Shown here piece after piece: positions 3,370-12,921 of a stretch of 64,000 bases of DNA. Each line of letters opens with the position of its first letter. Positions within the stretch are counted from its first letter, which is position 1. Source of the DNA: an uncultured archaeon (lineage in GTDB: Archaea; Aenigmatarchaeota; Aenigmatarchaeia; PWEA01; JAGHBM01); contig CAZOZN010000001.1 of assembly GCA_964584335.1 (NCBI GenBank), positions 293,351 to 357,350 of the forward strand. The letters run 5' to 3'. A program made the translations under genes and the position numbers. Below the pieces are notes generated by a model that saw only the letters and a program-made list of their open reading frames with translations, was not told the DNA's origin and did no database searches.

Positions 3370-4023
3370 ATGAATACAAAATATATCCTCCCTGCAATGC
3401 TTTTGGGAGTATTGCTTTTTGGAGGAATAGCAACAGTTAATGCAACAGCCAACTTGGCTGAAATACCAACATTTAGTGAAACAAGAAGAATAATAGAAAC
3501 AGGCTCTTTGATTGAGAAAGAAGAGTTTAAAATAGAAGAAAATGAGATACCTTCGTCTTACGAGGAAACAAAGAAGCTCATGAGATACTCCATTGAGAAT
3601 GATGAATTGATTATAACTCCGGATTCATCTTCATCAGAAGAAGTGACAAAAATAGACGGATATAGAGGTACAAGGAGGTTCTTGATGTATACCCAGGACG
3701 GAAGAAATATACTATGGGGGACTTTAAGAAACGGTTACTTCCTTGCTCAGGACAATGAAGGTAACGATGCTTGGGGAGTATATCAAGGAGGAAAATTTGT
3801 CGGTTTTTACGAAGAGGAAGAAGATTCGGTCTTTTATTTCCATGGATATTACAGGAAAGGTTACTGGAAAGCTCAAAATCTTTTCGGTGAAGAATCTTCG
3901 TACGGGAAATATGTTATTTTCCCAAATTCAAATATCAGACATTGGAAAATAAGACCAAATCCTGTAAGACCGTTATATTACCCTGGTCCAATGGAGGAAA
4001 CAATAGAAAAAGAGGTAATATGA
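3370..4023 (+). CDS. secreted hypothetical protein
   Basis: AGGTGAT SD 5 nt upstream of the ATG. N-terminal hydrophobic signal-like segment ILPAMLLGVLLFGGIATVNA. Aromatic/Gly-rich C-terminal half. Confidence 0.6.
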   Translation: MNTKYILPAMLLGVLLFGGIATVNATANLAEIPTFSETRRIIETGSLIEKEEFKIEENEIPSSYEETKKLMRYSIENDELIITPDSSSSEEVTKIDGYRGTRRFLMYTQDGRNILWGTLRNGYFLAQDNEGNDAWGVYQGGKFVGFYEEEEDSVFYFHGYYRKGYWKAQNLFGEESSYGKYVIFPNSNIRHWKIRPNPVRPLYYPGPMEETIEKEVI

Positions 4024-4035
4024 AATCAATAAATG

Positions 4036-4052
4036 CCCCTGCATGGCAGGGG
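4036..4052 (+). terminator. GC-rich hairpin immediately after the 3370-4023 gene
   Basis: cccctgc-atg-gcagggg, a perfect 7-bp stem in an otherwise AT-rich context. The ATG of the 4043 ORF-track start sits in the loop. Confidence 0.3.
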
Positions 4053-4087
4053 TAACCATATATAAACAAAGGAGAAATATTAAAATT

Positions 4088-4930
4088 ATGAAATTGTGGT
4101 TTTTATTCCCCCTTGTATTATTTTTTTGTATTTTTTCATCTCAGGCCGAAGCTGATATTGAAAGCGTAGATTATCTTGCAATAATAGAAGATAATGGAAA
4201 TGTTATAGTTACTGTAAATATAGAAGGAGAAGGTGTTGTTAATTTGCCTATACAAAAAGATGCAGAAGAGATAAACGTGGAGGGAGGACTCTACATAATA
4301 GAAGAAGATGAAATTGAAGTTTCCATAGGGGAGACTGGAGAAGCTTTTGTACTGTACTCTACATCTATGCTTACAAAAAAGAACGGAAGAAACTGGGAAT
4401 TTGACATGAAATTGCCTCAGAAATATTCGGTCGGATGTGCAGTTGCAATGCCAAAAGATACCAATCTCGAGGAAACAATACCAAATGCCGTAATAGAGTC
4501 AGGAGAAATAATGAAGCTTCACTGGAACAATGAAACGGATGAGATATACGTAAAATATTATTTTGATAAAGAAATAATTGAAGAGGAAATAAAAGGGGCA
4601 AACATAGTAATTTATTTGGCAGTCATTTTTTGCGCTATTTTAGCTCTTTCAGGAGGCGTAATAATATTTTCAAAAAGAAGAGAAATAAAGAAACTTGACA
4701 AGAAAAAAAACATAATAAAAACTTTACCCCCAAATGAGACAAAGATAGTTGAACTTTTAATGGAAAATGATGGTGAAATGAAGAGAAGTATAGCAGAGAG
4801 AAAATTAGAGATAGCTAAGTCAAGTCTTGCTGTTTCACTGAAAAATCTTGAAAGAAAAAATATAATAAAGGTTGACAGAACTTCAGCAAGCCATTACCTT
4901 AGGTTTACGAGTTGGTTTAATGAGCTTTAA
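4088..4930 (+). CDS. membrane-anchored protein: extracytoplasmic domain, one TM, C-terminal winged-helix DNA-binding-like domain
   Basis: Start chosen at MKLWFLFPLVLFF (signal-like). TM segment IVIYLAVIFCAILALSGGVIIF. C-terminal LPPNETKIVELLMENDGEMKRSIAERKLEIAKSSLAVSLKNLERKNIIKV looks MarR/TrmB-like wHTH. Confidence 0.6.
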   Translation: MKLWFLFPLVLFFCIFSSQAEADIESVDYLAIIEDNGNVIVTVNIEGEGVVNLPIQKDAEEINVEGGLYIIEEDEIEVSIGETGEAFVLYSTSMLTKKNGRNWEFDMKLPQKYSVGCAVAMPKDTNLEETIPNAVIESGEIMKLHWNNETDEIYVKYYFDKEIIEEEIKGANIVIYLAVIFCAILALSGGVIIFSKRREIKKLDKKKNIIKTLPPNETKIVELLMENDGEMKRSIAERKLEIAKSSLAVSLKNLERKNIIKVDRTSASHYLRFTSWFNEL

Positions 4931-5558
4931 TAAAAAAATAACTTTTGCATTTGTTTTGTTAGCCATCTTTATATTTGCCTCTTCTAATGTATTGGCAGGT
5001 TGCGGGTGTTCAAATATTAGTCAGAGCATTAGACTACCTTCAAATACTTTAAGAGATTTTCAGGATATAGAAAAAAAGCCGGTATCTACAGATTCCGAGA
5101 AAAGGGAATTTTACAACAAAGTTTTTAACATAAAAAGTGACACGAAAGCAAAAATATCAACAGTTGATAGTATTATCAGAAGAGGAAAAGAGGACCCGGA
5201 AAACTTCTTTGCAATAATGACTATAACAAGAGACATGGTTGAAGAAGATTATAGAAGTGATGTTGCAGAAATTTTAATCGATATGAATAATACTTTTGTA
5301 AAGAAGTTTTATCTTAAGGCAATGGAAAGTGAAAAACAAAAATACGAGATTAAAGAACAGATAATCAATTATGTTAAGCTAGTTTCGTCTGAACAGGAAA
5401 CAGAAATAAGTTTAGGGCCGGAGACAGAAAAAAACCAGACAACCCCGGGAGAAAATAAAATAGAGATAAAAAGAGATATATCTGAAGAAAGTATAAAGTC
5501 CCTTTTTAATAATGAGATAAGCAGAAAAGAATTTATCAACATCATATTCAATAAATAA
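4920..5558 (+). CDS. hypothetical lipoprotein-like secreted protein
   Basis: Internal start MSFNKKITFAFVLLAIFIFASSNVLAGC (hydrophobic segment plus LAGC lipobox-like). 11-nt overlap with the upstream gene. Confidence 0.5.
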   Translation: MSFNKKITFAFVLLAIFIFASSNVLAGCGCSNISQSIRLPSNTLRDFQDIEKKPVSTDSEKREFYNKVFNIKSDTKAKISTVDSIIRRGKEDPENFFAIMTITRDMVEEDYRSDVAEILIDMNNTFVKKFYLKAMESEKQKYEIKEQIINYVKLVSSEQETEISLGPETEKNQTTPGENKIEIKRDISEESIKSLFNNEISRKEFINIIFNK

Positions 5559-5609: not shown

Positions 5610-5843
5610 TTGGTTAAGGTAAAGGTTTATAGTGTACCTACTTGTCCTTACTGTAAGAAGATAAAGGAGTTTCTTAATAATGAAGGTATTGAATTTGAAG
5701 ATATAGATGTTTCTGAGGAAGAAAATAAAAAAGAGATGCTAGATAAAACAGGACAATTGAGAGTGCCACAGACAGAAATTAACGGAAATATGATAATTGG
5801 TTATAAAATGGAAAAAATAAAAGAGGAGTTAAAAAATGTATGA
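5610..5843 (+). CDS. glutaredoxin-like small redox protein
   Basis: CPYC active site and thioredoxin-fold pattern ..RVPQTEINGNMIIGY. AAGGAGGTG SD upstream of a TTG start. Confidence 0.8.
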   Translation: MVKVKVYSVPTCPYCKKIKEFLNNEGIEFEDIDVSEEENKKEMLDKTGQLRVPQTEINGNMIIGYKMEKIKEELKNV

Positions 5844-6744
5844 TATAATAATTATTGGAGCAGGAATTTCGGGACAAACTGCAGCAATATATGCATCAAG
5901 AAAAAAAATGAACTATCTATTCATAACCAAAGAAATCGGCGGACAGTTCCTTGAGTCCGGGGAAGTTGTAAATTATCCCGGAATAATAAAAACTACCGGC
6001 GAGGAATTTGCATCTGTTATGGAAGAGCAGCTTGAATTTAATGATGTGAGTGTTAATGAAAACGAGGAGGTAAAGTCAATAGAGAAAAAGGAAAAGGGGT
6101 TTAAAGTTACTACAGACAAAAATTCCTACGAATCTTATACGGTTCTGATAGCAACAGGAGCCAGGCACAGGATGCTTAAGGTACCGGGAGAAGAAAGGCT
6201 AAAGAACAAAGGAGTTACCTACTGTGCTGTGTGTGACGGTCCCTTGTTTTCCGGAAAGAATATTGCAATCATAGGCGGTGGAGATTCTGCACTTGAAGCT
6301 GCTGATTTCACAAAAAGTATTGCAAATAAAATATACCTTATAAATAGAAACAAAGACTTTAGTGCGCACGAATATTTGGTTGAAAGAGTAAAATCAATGG
6401 ACAACTTGGAGATAATAGAAGAGTCAAATACAGTTGAAATTTTAGGAGAAGAAATGGTTAAAGGTCTTGTTTACGAGAAGAATGGTGAAAAAAAGGAACT
6501 GGATGTGAATGGTATTATAATAGAGATTGGAAGAGTTCCTAATACCAATTTTGTAAAAGGACTTGTAGAGCTCGACAAACATGGCCATATAATAATTGAC
6601 TGTCAGACAGGAACCTCAGTCGAGGGTATATTCGCGGCAGGTGATTGTGCTTCCGGTCACGAATACCAGTATTGTATAGCCGCGGGGCAGGGTTGTATGG
6701 CTCTTCTTAAGGCAGCAAGATATATAGCAAAAAGAAATCTTTAG
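5836..6744 (+). CDS. trxB: thioredoxin-reductase-family flavoprotein (low-Mr TrxR type)
   Basis: GAGISGQTAA FAD motif, CAVC redox dithiol, GGGDSALEAA second dinucleotide motif, GIFAAGDC. Overlaps the upstream gene by 8 nt. Confidence 0.85.
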   Translation: MYDIIIIGAGISGQTAAIYASRKKMNYLFITKEIGGQFLESGEVVNYPGIIKTTGEEFASVMEEQLEFNDVSVNENEEVKSIEKKEKGFKVTTDKNSYESYTVLIATGARHRMLKVPGEERLKNKGVTYCAVCDGPLFSGKNIAIIGGGDSALEAADFTKSIANKIYLINRNKDFSAHEYLVERVKSMDNLEIIEESNTVEILGEEMVKGLVYEKNGEKKELDVNGIIIEIGRVPNTNFVKGLVELDKHGHIIIDCQTGTSVEGIFAAGDCASGHEYQYCIAAGQGCMALLKAARYIAKRNL

Positions 6745-6756
6745 TTGGTGGATAAA

Positions 6757-6903
6757 ATGGTTCAAAAAAAGTTTTGGAGATGTAATGTTTGTGGTGATAT
6801 ACACTACGGTGTTTCAGGCCCGGAGATTTGTCCCACATGCAATTTCAAGAACTCTTACGTAGAGATAGATAAAAACGAGGCAAAGAGTGTGATGAATTTA
6901 TGA
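6757..6903 (+). CDS. rubredoxin-like zinc/iron-ribbon protein (48 aa, below the ORF-track cutoff)
   Basis: Own translation: MVQKKFWRCNVCGDIHYGVSGPEICPTCNFKNSYVEIDKNEAKSVMNL. CxxC..(15)..CxxC as in the rubredoxin-like domain of rubrerythrin. Stop overlaps the next start (ATGA). Confidence 0.55.
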   Translation: MVQKKFWRCNVCGDIHYGVSGPEICPTCNFKNSYVEIDKNEAKSVMNL

Positions 6904-7166
6904 AAAAAGAATATTTGATAAAAGTCTGGGAAAACTTTACAAAAAACAATGATTTTAAGCTAAATACTGACACAAATCATGTAGAAGATTTGGCCTCGGG
7001 TGTTTTAGAGAACGAAAAAAAATTCGGTCTAAAGCTCTGTCCATGCAGACTAAGAGACGGAACCAGGGAAAGAGACTTGGAGCTTCTCTGTCCATGCAAT
7101 TTCAAATCACAGGAAACATGGAAAGAGGAAGGAAGGTGCTGGTGCGGGCTTTTTGTAAAAGAATGA
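6900..7166 (+). CDS. ferredoxin:thioredoxin reductase catalytic-subunit-like protein (FTRc family)
   Basis: Three CxC motifs (LCPCR ... LCPCN ... CWCGLF) in an ~88-aa protein, the hallmark of the FTR catalytic chain. Confidence 0.75.
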   Translation: MKKEYLIKVWENFTKNNDFKLNTDTNHVEDLASGVLENEKKFGLKLCPCRLRDGTRERDLELLCPCNFKSQETWKEEGRCWCGLFVKE

Positions 7167-7167
7167 T

Positions 7168-8277
7168 TCACTTCTTATTTTTCTTAACTCTTCTTCTCTC
7201 TTCAATCACCATTATGGGAGGTACCACGCCCAGTGCGGCTACCAGGGAATAGAAAACTCCGAAAGTCAGTGCCACAGAGAAATCCTGTAAGAAAGTAAGA
7301 GTTGCTGTAAGAAGAGCAAGAAAACCTATTATTGTTGTGAATGATGTTAAGGTAAGCCCTTTTCCTACATGCACTACAGCATTAGTAATTGCTTCTTCCG
7401 CGGGGTATTTTTTCCTGTCCTCCTTGAACCTATGTATTATATGTATTGCAAAATCTATTCCAAGACCTATAATTATAGAAAAAACTCCGGTTAATGGTGG
7501 TGATAAAGGTATCCCAACATAACCAAGAGTGCCAAAGGTCCATATCGTGGAAAGTATTATAGGGACCACCGCTATTCCCACGAAAGTTATTCTCCTAAAG
7601 AATAGATATAATATTACAAAAACCGCTAAAAATCCTATGAATGTAACATAGCTAGTTCTTCCGCCCAGACTTCTTCCTATTTCCTCTCCAAGAAATGCAG
7701 AACCGGCAAAATCAACTTTCATCCCCAGCGGTCTTTCGGAAAAGTATACTGTGTTTCTTATATAATTATTTAGCTGGTCTCTTTCAAAATCTGGCATATC
7801 TGCCATCAAAGAGAAAGTCATTATTGCAACTCTCTTGTCTTTGGTGATGAAATCCCCGGATTGTGGATTTTCTTCAAGAAAATAATTTATTTCTTTCTGT
7901 GAAAGAGATATGTCAACTAAATCTGTAACGCTTCTCTTGTTTAGTACAAATTCGTTTTCTTCTATTTGATTTCCTATATTTTCCATTGATTCTAAAATCC
8001 TTTTATCCCTTATATCGCTAACACTCATGGGATCTTTTTCTTCAAGCCTGAATATGAGAATTACGCTTTCTCCGCCTCTCCCTATTTTGTCTCTTATTTT
8101 ATTAAGGGAAATAATAGTATCTATGTCCTCTGGAAGCTGGCTTTCTTCGCTTGTTTCGTTTTCTATGAGAGAAAACCCGGTCGATATTATAATTGTGAAT
8201 ATCAGGAAAGCTGCTATAAAAGTCTTAGGTCTTTTGTTTTCTAGTTTTGCAAGTTTATCAAGATATTTTTCAATCAT
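7168..8277 (-). CDS. RND/MMPL-superfamily exporter, C-terminal half
   Basis: One N-terminal TM, a soluble loop domain, then five TMs with GLGIDFAIHIIHRF. ATGA overlap with the upstream half. Confidence 0.7.
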   Translation of the reverse strand: MIEKYLDKLAKLENKRPKTFIAAFLIFTIIISTGFSLIENETSEESQLPEDIDTIISLNKIRDKIGRGGESVILIFRLEEKDPMSVSDIRDKRILESMENIGNQIEENEFVLNKRSVTDLVDISLSQKEINYFLEENPQSGDFITKDKRVAIMTFSLMADMPDFERDQLNNYIRNTVYFSERPLGMKVDFAGSAFLGEEIGRSLGGRTSYVTFIGFLAVFVILYLFFRRITFVGIAVVPIILSTIWTFGTLGYVGIPLSPPLTGVFSIIIGLGIDFAIHIIHRFKEDRKKYPAEEAITNAVVHVGKGLTLTSFTTIIGFLALLTATLTFLQDFSVALTFGVFYSLVAALGVVPPIMVIEERRRVKKNKK

Positions 8278-9467
8278 TTTAACTGCCTCTTTATTTCATC
8301 CTTTAGAAATACATGCAACCAATCCCTTATGGAAAGCAACGAGGGCAGGAAGAATATTGATAAAATCATTGCATAGAAAATTCCAAGGCTTAGCGCTATC
8401 CCCATGTCTGAAAGAAACGGAATTCCTGAAAGAGTGAGCGCCAGAAAAGAAGCTATTGTAGTTATCGCCGTCCCGACTATGGCTCTTCCTACCCTGTCTA
8501 CAGCAACACCGTAACATATGAAGCATGTCTTCATACATCCGTCATAATCCCCTTCTATGCAAATCTTTCTTGAATCGTCTCTCCTCCTGCTTCTCTCTTC
8601 GTTATAACGGTTTATTATATGTATGGCATAATCTATCCCAATGCCCACGATAAGAGAGCCTACAACAACCGTGACTATAGAAAGCGGAACTCCTATAATA
8701 ACCATTGTACCCGCAGTCCAGATAAATGCAAGGAAGAGTATTGATATAGAGAAAATTCCTCTTAGAATTGAACGGTAAGATATCATAAGAGTTAGAAATA
8801 TCAAAACTCCCGCTATTGCAAGAGTTTTATACAAATCATCAAATATCAAATCAGAAACTATTTTGCCTATTAAAGGGCCTCCTGTAACCGAGAGAGAAAC
8901 GCTCCCAGGAAAACCTATGCTTTCTACCTCATTTTCTATCTCTTCTACCACTTCTTCTATTTCCTCAAGCTCTATTTTTCCGTTTAGTCTCACTGTAACT
9001 ATAGTGGTGCTATAGTCACTGCTAAAAAGCCCGGAATCGCCGTTAAAAATATTTTTTATATCCTCCTGGTTTTCAGGTATCCCTCCGGTTCTTAATAGAA
9101 GTATGTCGGGAGGGCCAAAAACTTCATTCACGTTGGGGTCCTTTCTCAGAAGCTCTTCCATCAGATTTAAGTCTTTCATGACTTCAGAATTTCTTATATC
9201 TGTTATTTTACTTTCAAAAGATTTTTCCGTGTTAAGCTCTACCAGTATGAATATGTTATCTGTCTCTGAAAAAACCTCTGCCAAGAAATTCTGGTTTTCA
9301 AGTGCTGGAAGATCCTGGGGAAGTGACTTATAGAAGTCTGTCTCTACATCTATTTTTACAGCGTTAAGACCCATAAAAAGGGTTATTATTATTGCAACAG
9401 AAAGAATAGTCTCGGGGTGTTTTGCGGCAAATTCCCCATATTTCTGAAGGAGAGTTTTCTCGGGCAT
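8274..9467 (-). CDS. RND/MMPL-superfamily exporter, N-terminal half
   Basis: Same topology as the neighbouring gene, with GIGIDYAIHIINRY motif. It is a paralogous half. Confidence 0.7.
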   Translation of the reverse strand: MPEKTLLQKYGEFAAKHPETILSVAIIITLFMGLNAVKIDVETDFYKSLPQDLPALENQNFLAEVFSETDNIFILVELNTEKSFESKITDIRNSEVMKDLNLMEELLRKDPNVNEVFGPPDILLLRTGGIPENQEDIKNIFNGDSGLFSSDYSTTIVTVRLNGKIELEEIEEVVEEIENEVESIGFPGSVSLSVTGGPLIGKIVSDLIFDDLYKTLAIAGVLIFLTLMISYRSILRGIFSISILFLAFIWTAGTMVIIGVPLSIVTVVVGSLIVGIGIDYAIHIINRYNEERSRRRDDSRKICIEGDYDGCMKTCFICYGVAVDRVGRAIVGTAITTIASFLALTLSGIPFLSDMGIALSLGIFYAMILSIFFLPSLLSIRDWLHVFLKDEIKRQLK

Positions 9468-9479
9468 AAAACCACGAAT

Positions 9480-10796
9480 TTATTCTTCGATAACTCTCTC
9501 CTTTTTTTGGTTGATTCTCTTAAATAAAATACCCTTCTTCCATATGTAGAGACCTACTATTATCAATATAGATATTATTATTACCGTTATCACAGAATTA
9601 TTTACTCTTTCTCTTACAACATCCAATTGTATTGTTTCAGTCTCGGTATAAACCTCGCCATCATCCAAATACCTTATTTCCAAGTCTAGGAAATACTTCT
9701 TAAGTACTGCATCCTCATCTACTGTAAAATCAAAAACAACCTCTCCTGTTTGGTTTTCCTTGAGATTTCCTATAAAATCGTATACTTCCTCGAATTCAAA
9801 AGGCTGGGTGGATTCTCTAAAAACTTTTACGCTAACACTGTTAGCTTCTTCCTCTCCATCATTTTTTACCATTATTCTTATTTCTCCGGAATCTCCCTGT
9901 GAAAGACTCGAAGGATTTACGACTGTTTCTCCTCTTACGATGTAACCAGTGAAAGAATCAGATGAAGTTCCGGTTCCTGCCCTGACTTCTTCTACATTGA
10001 GAATTGGTGATTTTTTTACATTTATTTCCAAGTCAATTTCCTGGCTAACATATTCTTCCCATTGGTTATTGTCATACTTGTATCTTACCACCAGCTTCGC
10101 TTTGTGTATACCGGGCTCGGTTTCTTTATCCACATCCATATAGAAAACCGCGCTTTTTGAGGAGTCTTTGCCAAAATTTCCCAGAGAATATGAATCAGAA
10201 TAGCTGTCACTAGGCTCAAATCCTTCAGGCAAAATCAACTTAGTGCTTACCAAATCTGCATCTCCTTCTCCAACATTCTGTATTTCAACATCCATTTTTA
10301 CCTCTTCCATCCCGGATTTTATATCTTCAGGAAAAGATTTTATTCTGCTTACGGCGAATTCTGGGTTTTTTGATTCTACGTCTACAGTTATTTTTTTCGT
10401 TACGTATGTATTATCTTCCAATCCATCTGTATCGCAGATTAATTTAAGTTCATTTTCTCCCCTGACAGCATTAGAATCGATTCTTACCTTATATTCAAGA
10501 AGAAAATCTTCTCTGTAGCCTAACTTGCCTATTTCCCTTACCGGGTCTTCGTTCGGATCAAGTGAGAAAGGGTATTCAGGATTTAACTTACAAACCACGT
10601 TTTCTGCATCTATTACTCCCTGATTTTCAACTTTTAAGAAAAGCTTCATATATTTACCGGCTTCCGCAGGAAAGGGTTCGTATTTCATTTCTATTATTCT
10701 CAAGCTTGGTAAATTGGTATCCGCAACAGCAAAAGAATAAGAAAAAAAGCTGGTTATAAATAAAGAAATCATAAATACAAAAATATATTTTTTCAT
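9480..10796 (-). CDS. secreted CARDB/S-layer-domain-like protein with C-terminal TM anchor
   Basis: N-terminal signal-like segment. Repeated beta-rich modules of the type V.V.N.G...A..V. C-terminal TM VITVIIISILIIVGLYIW plus a basic tail. Confidence 0.6.
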   Translation of the reverse strand: MKKYIFVFMISLFITSFFSYSFAVADTNLPSLRIIEMKYEPFPAEAGKYMKLFLKVENQGVIDAENVVCKLNPEYPFSLDPNEDPVREIGKLGYREDFLLEYKVRIDSNAVRGENELKLICDTDGLEDNTYVTKKITVDVESKNPEFAVSRIKSFPEDIKSGMEEVKMDVEIQNVGEGDADLVSTKLILPEGFEPSDSYSDSYSLGNFGKDSSKSAVFYMDVDKETEPGIHKAKLVVRYKYDNNQWEEYVSQEIDLEINVKKSPILNVEEVRAGTGTSSDSFTGYIVRGETVVNPSSLSQGDSGEIRIMVKNDGEEEANSVSVKVFRESTQPFEFEEVYDFIGNLKENQTGEVVFDFTVDEDAVLKKYFLDLEIRYLDDGEVYTETETIQLDVVRERVNNSVITVIIISILIIVGLYIWKKGILFKRINQKKERVIEE

Positions 10797-10854
10797 TCTA
10801 ACACCCTTGGTTATAATAATAAGATACCAAAAGGATTTAAGTTAGTTAGAGAAA

Positions 10855-11745
10855 TTATAAGAATCCTTCTTCTTTTAATATTTTCTTTGCCTTTAGAGCA
10901 CTTTTCTCTTTGTCCTTTATCTCCATCATGAGGTCAAAATCTATTCCTTTTACTTTCCTGACAAATTCAACAAAATGTTTCCCGTCTATACTTTTTGAAT
11001 GGCTTCCTCTTCTTCCGTTAGTCTGCTGACTGGAATAATCAACCATCATTTTCCCGTCTTTTTTATTCCAAGTTCCAGATGCTAATTTCATAGCCGAAGC
11101 CAATTTTTCATTATTGTTAAGACATTCATGATGGAATGTATCGAAAACCACCGGTATTTTTATCTTTTTACTTACTTCAAGACAGTCTCTGAGGCTGTAT
11201 ATGTGATCGTCATTTTCTATCACAAGTCTTTTCTTGATTTTTTTGCTCAGTCTCTCGTAACGGTCGACAAATCTTTCCTTTGACCTTTTTTTATCACCGT
11301 ACATGCCTCCCAAATGAATCTGTACCTTGGCTTTGCTGTCAAGAGACATAGCGTCCAAAAGACTGCAGTGATAATCTAATTCCTTTACACTCGATTTGTA
11401 TACGCTTCTTCTTGGAGAATTCAATACAACAAACTGGTCTGGGTGCATGCTTATCCTGAACTTGTATTTTTTAATAAACTTGCCTATACTTCTTAGCTCC
11501 TGAGAAAAATGAGATTCCCAATTAAATTTACATATTTTATGAGATGCAAAAGGAACTATACCGGAACCTATCCTAAAGAAAAAAAATCCGTGCTGTTGGT
11601 TGTATACAAGAGTTTTTTCAAGACAACCGAGATTTTCTCTTATTTTGTATTTTAACCTGTTCTCATTATAGGACCTTAACCTTAGAGTTCTGTTTGATGT
11701 ACATCCTACAGTATTGTTTATACATGGATATCCTAATTTCATCAA
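10855..11745 (-). CDS. uvdE: UV damage endonuclease (UvdE/UVDE family)
   Basis: MKLGYPCIN...NRTLRL N-terminus and TIM-barrel His/Asp/Glu pattern (MHPDQF, IHLGG, VIENDD, FDTFHH). Confidence 0.85.
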   Translation of the reverse strand: MMKLGYPCINNTVGCTSNRTLRLRSYNENRLKYKIRENLGCLEKTLVYNQQHGFFFFRIGSGIVPFASHKICKFNWESHFSQELRSIGKFIKKYKFRISMHPDQFVVLNSPRRSVYKSSVKELDYHCSLLDAMSLDSKAKVQIHLGGMYGDKKRSKERFVDRYERLSKKIKKRLVIENDDHIYSLRDCLEVSKKIKIPVVFDTFHHECLNNNEKLASAMKLASGTWNKKDGKMMVDYSSQQTNGRRGSHSKSIDGKHFVEFVRKVKGIDFDLMMEIKDKEKSALKAKKILKEEGFL

Positions 11746-11751
11746 ATCTCC

Positions 11752-12111
11752 TCAAAATTCACATTCCTCACAATCCAAGCCGGGACAGTCAGAATGTCCT
11801 ATTTTCCACTCTAATCCCCATCTCTTAACTTCTTTTATCACATTAAAAAAGTCTTCACCCTTCTCAGTTAATGTGTACTCTGATTTTACGGGAAACTTTT
11901 TAGCCTCTATCTTATTTTTTATTATGCCTTCTTTCTCAAGGCTTTTTAATCTAGCAGAAAGCATTTTAGGAGTTATATCAGGTATCTTCTTTTTTAACTC
12001 GGAATATCTTTTCCATTTGCTTTTCCCCTTGTATATCTCTGCTATTATTAAAACGGTCCATCTTTTCCCCATGTATTTCATTACCTCGTAAATAGGACAA
12101 TCTCTTTTCAT
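11752..12111 (-). CDS. HxlR-family winged-helix transcriptional regulator with Cys-rich C-terminal tail
   Basis: CPIYEVMKYMGKRWTVLII...RYSELKK...ITPKMLSARLKSLEKEGII...EYTLTEKG. Extra tail HSDCPGLDCEECEF. Divergent from the peroxiredoxin operon. Confidence 0.8.
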   Translation of the reverse strand: MKRDCPIYEVMKYMGKRWTVLIIAEIYKGKSKWKRYSELKKKIPDITPKMLSARLKSLEKEGIIKNKIEAKKFPVKSEYTLTEKGEDFFNVIKEVKRWGLEWKIGHSDCPGLDCEECEF

Positions 12112-12187
12112 ACTATACTTTTTGAAACTCTATTATATAAATATAATTATGATACTAAGTATAATAAAGATACTAAAGGTGATAAAA

Positions 12188-12256
12188 ATGTTTTTTTCAG
12201 GTAAAAACTTTTATAAGCAAGATAAACTTATAATAGGATTACGGGGGGTGTTTTAA
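12188..12256 (+). CDS. 22-codon upstream ORF (possible leader peptide) ending in TAATG overlap with the peroxiredoxin start
   Basis: Own translation: [33 protein letters not shown] 5 nt upstream, the same consensus as bona fide genes here. Its stop shares one base with the prx ATG. Confidence 0.3.
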
Positions 12257-12921
12257 TGGAAGAAGAAAAAAATTCTATGCCTTTAATAGGTGACGATTTT
12301 CCCAAGATTACTGTTCATACCACTCACGGGAGAATAAATTTACCCGATGATTACAAAGGCAAGTGGTTCGTTTTGTTCAGTCATCCTGGTGATTTTACGC
12401 CTGTATGCACTACTGAATTCGTGGCTTTTCAGAAAAGATTTGACAAGTTCAAAAAGCTAAACACAGAACTGATAGGTCTTAGCATAGACCAGGTTCACAG
12501 CCACATGAAATGGACCGAATGGATAGAAGAAAAGATGGATGTAAAAATAAAGTTTCCCATAATAGCAGATGCTATGGGTAACTTAGCAAAAAAACTTGGC
12601 ATGATAAGCCCATTTAAGGGTTCTAATACTGTCAGGGCAGTTTTTGTAGTAGACTCTAACGGCAAGTTTCGTGCCATATTGTATTATCCCCAGGAACTGG
12701 GAAGAAACATGGATGAAGTGCTAAGGATAGTACAGGCAATGCAAATTTCAGACGAAAATAAAGTTGCAATGCCGGCAAACTGGCCCAAAAATGAAATATT
12801 GGGCGACGAGGTAATAGTACCGCCTGCTTCTGATGAGGAAACCGCTAAAAAGAGGATGGAAGAAGACAAGAAAGGAAGTATAAAATGTTTTGATTGGTGG
12901 TTGTGCCACAAAAAACTTTAA
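12256..12921 (+). CDS. peroxiredoxin (archaeal Prx6-like thiol peroxidase)
   Basis: [11 protein letters not shown] peroxidatic Cys motif. C-terminal CFDWWLCHK Cys pair typical of archaeal Prx. Confidence 0.9.

Follow-up and report, generated by a model that had tools for sequence, protein, structure and literature searches.

A 64,000-nt stretch of DNA from an uncultured archaeon of the Aenigmatarchaeota, called the window below, carries a gene for a flavoprotein of the thioredoxin reductase (TrxR) family that lacks the NADPH-binding motif H-R-R-x-x-x-R. The source genome (G000) has a size of 0.96 Mb in 5 contigs and is 92% complete; a diphthamide-synthase gene in it points to an archaeon with a small genome. 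Coordinates are those of the window unless a locus label (L..., G000:C1) is given. The reductase gene is preceded by a gene for a small glutaredoxin-like (Grx-like) protein, the stop codon of which overlaps the reductase start by 8 nt. It is followed by genes for a rubredoxin-like (Rd-like) protein and a homolog of the FTR catalytic chain (FTRc), which share an ATGA overlap. An initial annotation, made from the sequence alone, had named the same neighbours, and the Pfam matches agree with it. The features discussed are listed in Table 1. An Rfam scan of the window gave no match.

Table 1. Genes and sequence motifs discussed in the text, with their positions in the window
Feature	Positions	Strand	Evidence
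Glutaredoxin-like redoxin, 77 aa, CPYC, Cp9/YruB type	5610..5843	+	PF00462, 63.6 bits
TrxR-fold FAD disulfide reductase, low-Mr, 302 aa	5836..6744	+	PF07992, 142.8 bits
FAD-binding GxGxxG (G8-G13)	5857..5874	+	Alignment A1; G8, G10, G13 invariant
Redox-active CAVC (C130, C133)	6223..6234	+	C130, C133, D134, G135, P136 invariant in 120 homologs
Second dinucleotide (pyrophosphate) loop GGGDSALE, residues 147-154, intact	6274..6297	+	
N170-R171-N172-K173-D174-F175-S176, where the NADPH 2'-phosphate motif H-R-R-x-x-x-R is expected	6343..6363	+	
A-H-E-Y-L signature of the narrow clade (A177-L181)	6364..6378	+	
Rubredoxin-like protein, 48 aa, CxxC...CxxC	6757..6903 (TTG at 6745 is an alternative start)	+	PF21349, 37.2 bits
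FTR catalytic-chain homolog, 88 aa, CPC...CPC...CWC	6900..7166	+	PF02943, 63.8 bits
Peroxiredoxin (AhpC-TSA + 1-Cys Prx C-terminal domain), candidate final acceptor	12256..12921	+	Pfam

The missing arginine cluster of the reductase

According to Pfam, the reductase contains Pyr_redox domains only. Its best PDB sequence matches reach 1e-61, and it scores below the cut-offs of both TIGR01292 (297.6 bits, cut-off 343.45) and the AhpF model TIGR03140 (278.3 bits, cut-off 502.9). The first of these scores is weak evidence alone, because the second TrxR of the genome, which retains the Arg cluster, is also below the cut-off (317 bits).

The protein was aligned using MAFFT (alignment A1), with E. coli K-12 trxB as a reference (mature numbering), and using HMMER against solved TrxRs and AhpF; residue-level alignments to solved structures cover the five best PDB matches. 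There are no gaps from the GGG loop through the motif segment, where E. coli TrxB reads H175-R176-R177-D-G-F-R181. H175 corresponds to N170 of the query, R176 is kept as R171, R177 is replaced by N172 and R181 by S176. The initial annotation had located this segment after the GGG loop and had noted the replacement of two of the three Arg residues by Asn and Ser. Both statements are borne out by the translation of positions 6262-6384, with N170-A177 encoded at 6343-6366, and by the ungapped alignment with E. coli TrxB and the solved TrxRs, in which the Arg cluster is missing from the query. The aligned segment reads H-R-R...K in the Sulfolobus and Methanosarcina NADPH enzymes and E385-F-A...K in E. 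coli AhpF. The surroundings of the redox Cys pair (K-G-V-T-Y-C-x-x-C-D-G-P-L-F) also resemble those of AhpF and not those of E. coli TrxB (A1).

Residue conservation was counted in the 120 closest homologs (60-71% identity, out of thousands of homologs), the named members of which are metagenome-assembled genome (MAG) sequences of Altiarchaeota, Omnitrophota, Nitrospirota, Woesearchaeota and Nanoarchaeota. In the pyrophosphate loop, G147 and G149 are present in all 120 sequences and G148 in 116. All three Arg positions are usually non-basic in this set, and the substitution is a clade feature, not a chance trait of one sequence. Position 172, the equivalent of R177, is occupied by G in 51, E in 30 and N in 12 of the sequences, and position 176 by T, N or S in 90. 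The retained R171 is no feature of the clade, since position 171 is I in 64 homologs and R or K in only 31. Position 170 is N in 82/120 and V in 27/120, and position 173 is K in 63/120 and Asp or Glu in 41/120. The signature following the motif is shared by most homologs (H178 in 116, E179 in 105, Y180 in 114 and L181 in 119). When the query protein was scored against 1.84 billion representatives and the 150 best were classified by motif, 36 had x-R-R-x-x-x-[R/K], 24 an acidic residue at the end of beta-2, 26 Asn at this place and 64 other residues. A recent degenerative loss of the motif was ruled out, as the whole branch to which the query belongs is devoid of HRRxxxR.

The end of the beta-2 strand is the classical position for discrimination between NAD and NADP. 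A structural model, which the initial annotation had proposed as a check, was obtained with AlphaFold (pLDDT 95.7), and its top Foldseek match is E. coli AhpF. Residues 165-169 are modelled as the beta-2 strand of the second Rossmann unit, which places N170 at the cofactor-discriminating position. The model confirms the fold and the position of N170; the choice of coenzyme is not decidable from it.

The residues adjoining N170 bear on the possibility that the enzyme uses NADPH, or both NADPH and NADH, with R171, K173 and perhaps H178 holding the 2'-phosphate. R171 is the equivalent of E. coli R176, K173 and H178 recur among the homologs, the beta-2 end has no acidic residue, and the best matches by sequence include solved NADPH enzymes (3f8p, 210 bits). 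However, no basic pocket is conserved, because positions 171-173 are often Ile, Glu and Asp/Glu, respectively. A single basic residue at the same place in D. vulgaris TRi was judged insufficient for the 2'-phosphate by its authors (PMC5627308). In addition, the Arg cluster is found in no member of the branch containing the query (48 or 108 rows, depending on the tree; see below), and the genome keeps a separate TrxR with this cluster. NADPH-dependent or dual activity is thus considered unlikely. The suggestion of the initial annotation that the enzyme may not use NADPH holds in so far as the protein is not of the canonical NADPH type and the Arg cluster is missing clade-wide. As to compensating basic residues, the query has R171 and K173, which leave room for NADPH affinity, while none is conserved at the three Arg positions.

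Two proteins near the query clade (P0123 and P0125, 49-50% identical to the query) have lost both redox Cys residues. CxxC is replaced by R-G-I-S and S-V-V-S, respectively, and the GGG loop of P0123 is altered too. Such TrxR-like proteins may have lost catalysis or taken on another role.

Place in the TrxR family and the glutaredoxin-like partner

Trees were constructed with FastTree (178 rows) and IQ-TREE under LG+C20 (69 rows). Both trees are unrooted with support values of the SH type only, and the sequences of Cp34, T. maritima TR, Thermoplasma TrxR, DvTR3, FFTR and DFTR are not among their rows. The FastTree phylogeny contains a 108-row clade (SH-like 98) that holds the query and the AhpF reductase module and has zero members with HRRxxxR. 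In the IQ-TREE phylogeny, 48 rows are separated from 21 with an SH-aLRT value of 99. Besides the query clade, the 48-row side, where all sequences are non-HRR, holds the C-module of E. coli AhpF, two more AhpFs and every Grx-linked or Grx-fused form; the 21-row side includes 18 HRRxxxR rows, among them E. coli TrxB and the source genome's own paralog. The narrow A-H-E-Y-L clade of the query consists of 17 rows with 100% SH-like support (FastTree), and the corresponding groupings of 12 and 14 rows have 98% each (IQ-TREE). A profile of the Grx-linked branch matched the AhpF catalytic core best in the PDB, with 346 bits versus 321 and 309 for NADPH-dependent TrxRs (NTRs). In both trees, the residue at the beta-2 end alternates between Asn and Glu/Asp in close sisters (L024/L025, L008/L016, L044/L065), a pattern that would fit a ribose-hydroxyl contact for NAD(H).

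The query is neither a canonical NTR nor an AhpF, and it is not an FFTR or TRi either. The FAD motif, CxxC and GGGxxAxE expected of an NTR are present, but HRRxxxR is absent, the protein does not group with E. coli TrxB and its partner is different. FFTR and TRi are distant and, unlike them, the query has an intact loop. The likeness to the C-terminal module of AhpF (1fl2, 4o5q, 1hyu) is the closest structurally and by PDB profile, and extends to the tree branch, the missing Arg cluster, the GGG loop and a nearly identical redox-Cys context. However, the query is without the N-terminal tandem thioredoxin-fold domain of AhpF and has a separate Grx-like protein instead, its beta-2 end carries Asn in place of Glu385, and the identity is 36%. 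The longer relatives found were AhpFs, with 36-40% identity. The missing motif as such is nothing unusual, being common to a large branch of which most is unstudied. Less ordinary is the single Grx-like gene, which has both a flavin reductase and an FTRc-type reductase for neighbours.

The Grx-like gene is the only PF00462 gene in the source genome. The best NCBIfam match of its product is TIGR02196 GlrX_YruB, with 78.4 bits against a cut-off of 88.55. Gene contexts were read from genome and metagenome locus scans, in which the contexts of the closest homologs (66-71% identical) are not covered. Upstream DNA could be read at 112 loci that carry a non-Arg-cluster reductase. In 80 of them, a Grx-like gene precedes the reductase on the same strand, being directly adjacent in 57 and within 1.6 kb in 23 more. 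Natural glutaredoxin-TrxR fusions also occur (P0167, P0233, P0259). The linkage and the fusions point to dithiol exchange.

In other lineages, the Grx-TrxR pair is accompanied by genes for rubrerythrins, a flavodiiron protein, Fpg or a ribonucleotide reductase; desulfoferrodoxin and hemerythrin genes are further neighbours seen in relatives. The rubrerythrin and flavodiiron genes would suit an NADH oxidase, or a rubrerythrin or flavodiiron reductase bypassing the Grx-like protein, and TrxR-fold enzymes with donors other than NAD(P)H are known (PMC5627308), so that a donor such as F420 in the manner of DFTR might also be thought of. All of these options are very improbable in view of the CxxC, invariant in the 120 homologs, and of the Grx linkage and fusions; the 0.96-Mb genome would also make F420 biosynthesis unlikely.

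Two arrangements of these genes deserve mention on their own. An Altiarchaeota MAG (L065:2584-4921) has a flavodiiron protein gene (ODP and flavodoxin domains) between the Grx-like and reductase genes. In a Methanosarcinales MAG (L005:3088-5653), the reductase gene (58% identical product) is directly followed by that of the ribonucleotide reductase large subunit.

Electron donor and the downstream genes

NADH is the most likely donor, because the whole branch, including the NADH-dependent AhpF, is without the Arg cluster yet keeps the pyrophosphate loop. The GGGxxAxE loop is kept in TrxR types using NADPH or NADH and is lost or degenerate in ferredoxin-dependent, F420-dependent and donor-unknown types (PMC5627308, PMC10880999). 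Glu at the R177 position, found in 30/120 homologs, would repel the 2'-phosphate. Judged from these sequence features, the chance that NADH is the donor is slightly above even.

Several observations weigh against NADH or against the thiol system proposed below. In the query, Asn and not Glu or Asp stands at the beta-2 end, R171 is retained and K173 is present; the enzyme may hence have some affinity for NADPH or accept both coenzymes. Within the narrow A-H-E-Y-L clade, the residue at position 170 swaps with Val, Thr or Ser and is acidic in 1/120 (Asp); since an acidic residue hardly ever occurs there, the argument for NADH is weaker for the query than for the wider branch. Iron-sulfur partners occur in the non-Arg-cluster branch, because P0136 (394 aa, 42% identity, Asn type, CxxC intact) is a natural fusion with a C-terminal plant-type 2Fe-2S ferredoxin domain (PF00111, 67 bits). 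Finally, the peroxiredoxin gene lies at a distance of 5.5 kb, in a different transcription unit and after four minus-strand genes.

The best PDB match of FTRc is 4tpu, an FTRc-rubredoxin protein of Methanosarcina (8e-15). The window proteins and 4tpu of Methanosarcina acetivorans have in common the FTRc fold with CPC-type cysteines and a rubredoxin-type module; in the window, however, the modules are encoded by separate genes, the Rd-like one first, and are clustered with a Grx-like gene. Together, the Rd-like and FTRc proteins correspond to the Methanosarcina FTRc-rubredoxin enzyme in split form. A search for FTRc gave no match in seven genomes of the same family, but matches in four genomes of the same class. 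Two of the latter, G118 (L134:1486-3215) and G119 (L131:1113-1761), have the order Grx-like (CPYC/CPWC), Rd-like (50-53 aa) and FTRc (88-91 aa) with no TrxR, and two rubrerythrin-type genes follow this cassette in G118. This arrangement suggests a split ferredoxin/rubredoxin:disulfide reductase with the Grx-like protein as its substrate. The Grx-like, Rd-like and FTRc proteins of the window share 59, 73 and 71% identity, respectively, with their G118 counterparts. No reductase of the window type was found in either genome: the best TrxR match of G119 (L104) has the Arg cluster, and the two matches of G118 are distant (35-36% identity). Because the same cassette occurs there without TrxR, the reductase gene of the window lies within a Grx-Rd-FTRc cassette; the closest relatives of the reductase itself belong to other phyla.

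Among about 150 loci, one other (L145, 50% identity) clusters a TrxR of this branch with Rd-FTRc, the two being separated by ferritin-like, VIT1-like and desulfoferrodoxin genes. Adjacency to FTRc and Rd-like genes was therefore ruled out as a conserved trait of the reductase.

The initial annotation had proposed an iron-sulfur neighbour as the reductant, in which case the flavoenzyme would be fed by the adjacent Rd-like protein or a ferredoxin in the FFTR manner. The Rd-like gene is directly downstream in the same operon, P0136 is fused to a ferredoxin domain, L145 again combines a branch TrxR with Rd-FTRc in one cluster, and the narrow clade is without the acidic NAD marker. The query, solved FFTRs (6gna/6gnc) and D. 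vulgaris TRi (5nii) also share the TrxR fold, CxxC, the absence of H-R-R-x-x-x-R and an origin in anaerobes. However, GGGxxAxE is invariant in the query clade, while in published accounts FFTR, TRi and DFTR lack it or have it in a degenerate form (PMC5627308, PMC10880999): FFTR lacks both GxGxxA and HRRxxxR (PMC10880999), and TRi has T-Q/N-G-K for H-R-R-D together with a GEGxxAxN loop (PMC5627308). Solved FFTRs are much more distant than AhpF (127-148 bits versus 209), the match to 5nii is weak as well (76 bits), and the FFTR nucleotide domain is shorter (113 residues in 6gna versus 127 in the query). Moreover, the Rd-like gene travels with FTRc and Grx and without any TrxR in G118 and G119, and among the about 150 loci L145 is the only other one in which Rd-like or FTRc genes accompany a branch TrxR. 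The intact loop, the placement in the AhpF branch and the TrxR-less cassettes speak against the proposed reductant, and a supply of this kind appears rather doubtful. The Rd-like and FTRc proteins are instead interpreted as another reductase for the Grx-like carrier, which would be shared with the flavoenzyme, and not as the donor of the latter.

A more speculative version, to which we give little credence, is that the A-H-E-Y-L subclade has an intact loop yet makes no use of NAD(P)H and is reduced by a rubredoxin-like protein or ferredoxin. If this were true, the enzyme would represent a new class of rubredoxin/ferredoxin-dependent flavin disulfide reductases, distinct from FFTR and wired to an FTRc reductase and a shared Grx-like carrier in one operon.

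Proposed thiol system and its genomic setting

With modest confidence, the reductase is interpreted as an NADH-linked reductase of the Grx-like protein, within a Cp34/Cp9- or AhpF-like thiol system for defence against oxidative stress. In the proposed system, NADH would supply the electrons, by analogy with AhpF, Cp34 of Clostridium pasteurianum and the Thermotoga enzyme, and a flavoenzyme of the homodimer type would pass them from FAD to the CAVC disulfide. CAVC would then reduce a dedicated substrate, the translationally coupled CPYC protein encoded upstream. The reduced Grx-like protein could in turn reduce the single peroxiredoxin of the genome and other oxidised thiols, with the Rd-like and FTRc proteins acting as a further reductase, of the iron-sulfur type, for this carrier.

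By analogy, such a system would work most like Cp34/Cp9 (a 'split AhpF') and the Thermotoga TR/Grx-like pair. Cp9 of C. pasteurianum is a redoxin of the YruB type with a C-P-[YW]-C site, and its gene lies between those of an NADH-dependent TrxR-like protein and a peroxiredoxin (PMC3720550); the Cp34/Cp9/Cp20 system is that of Reynolds, Meyer and Poole (2002), taken here as it is summarised in PMC3720550. The likeness, as far as the published description goes, consists of a TrxR-like flavoprotein of about 300 aa beside a C-P-[YW]-C redoxin of 75-80 aa in the oxygen-defence context of an anaerobe, with peroxiredoxin and rubredoxin-type genes nearby. In contrast to Clostridium, the gene order in the window is Grx then TrxR, the peroxiredoxin is outside the operon, and Rd-like and FTRc genes follow. 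The TrxR of T. maritima prefers NADH, is without the H-R-R residues and pairs with a Grx-like protein and not with thioredoxin (Yang and Ma 2010, as cited in PMC5627308). The missing residues and the Grx-like partner, as described, liken this pair to that of the window. PF00085 gave no match in the T. maritima control genome. Two further low-Mr TRs that are NADH-linked and without the H-R-R residues are D. vulgaris TR3 and Thermoplasma TrxR (PMC5627308).

In 80 Clostridium genomes, AhpFs were found, as well as TrxR-then-Grx-like (CPSC/CPAC) pairs with the motif I-R-R-[Y/H]-[D/N]-Y-F-x-G-E. These pairs (L087:1477-2667, L088-L095) keep two Arg, the third being replaced by Tyr or His, and group with the NTRs in the tree. 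They are not called Cp34 here; L087, the one locus inspected, continues into an aldehyde dehydrogenase gene and not into a peroxiredoxin gene.

The cassette appears to be specific to the source genome among the relatives searched, which comprised four genomes of the same genus and three of the same family (79-91% complete). The reductase type, the Grx-like protein and FTRc had no match in these seven genomes, nor did a search of the four congeners give a match to the peroxiredoxin family; since the genomes are incomplete, this is not proof of true absence. In the source genome, the peroxiredoxin at 12256-12921 is the only match to PF00578. The congener G085 (L226) has homologs of the window genes at 3370-5558, followed directly by a hemerythrin-like gene and then by a string of EncFtn-like, rubrerythrin, PPIase, desulfoferrodoxin and ferredoxin genes, which starts near 12.9 kb in the window. 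In the congener G084 (L225), the hemerythrin-like gene abuts an MMPL half-gene, which is abutted by FTRc in the window. Compared with G085 and G084, the window has additional genes at 5610-12921, between a trio of secreted, winged helix-turn-helix and lipoprotein genes and the EncFtn-rubrerythrin-desulfoferrodoxin string: Grx-TrxR-Rd-FTRc, two halves of an MMPL gene, and genes for a CARDB protein, UvdE, HxlR and the peroxiredoxin. As the congeners carry a hemerythrin-like gene at this place, the region of oxygen-defence genes that holds the cassette is variable.

Annotations routinely treat low-Mr thioredoxin reductases as NADPH-dependent. A very large branch of the family in uncultured anaerobic bacteria and archaea, however, is without the NADPH-specifying residues, and it probably runs on NADH, because these residues are missing and because the branch has ties to Grx-like carriers and oxygen-defence genes. 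On the proposed reading, a small-genome archaeon would have two thiol systems that differ in their partners and probably also in their source of electrons, and one of these systems would have been gained together with the only peroxiredoxin. The operon might then serve as a simple test bed for the question of whether one disulfide carrier is charged from two electron pools.

The second TrxR of the genome (G000:C1:170286-171179; L001:1465-2412) has the motif Y-R-R-D-S-M-R, and its gene is directly preceded by that of a thioredoxin with a C-M-P-C site. This thioredoxin-TrxR pair with the Arg cluster is conserved in all seven same-family genomes searched. In its dinucleotide loop, the housekeeping enzyme has G-G-S for G-G-G, and the following Glu is missing. 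As this TrxR keeps the Arg cluster but has an altered loop, neither TrxR of the lineage is fully canonical. The same loop, G-G-S-[N/D]-[S/A]-A, is found in genomes of the same genus and family (relatives L114, L116, L119, L120 and L125).

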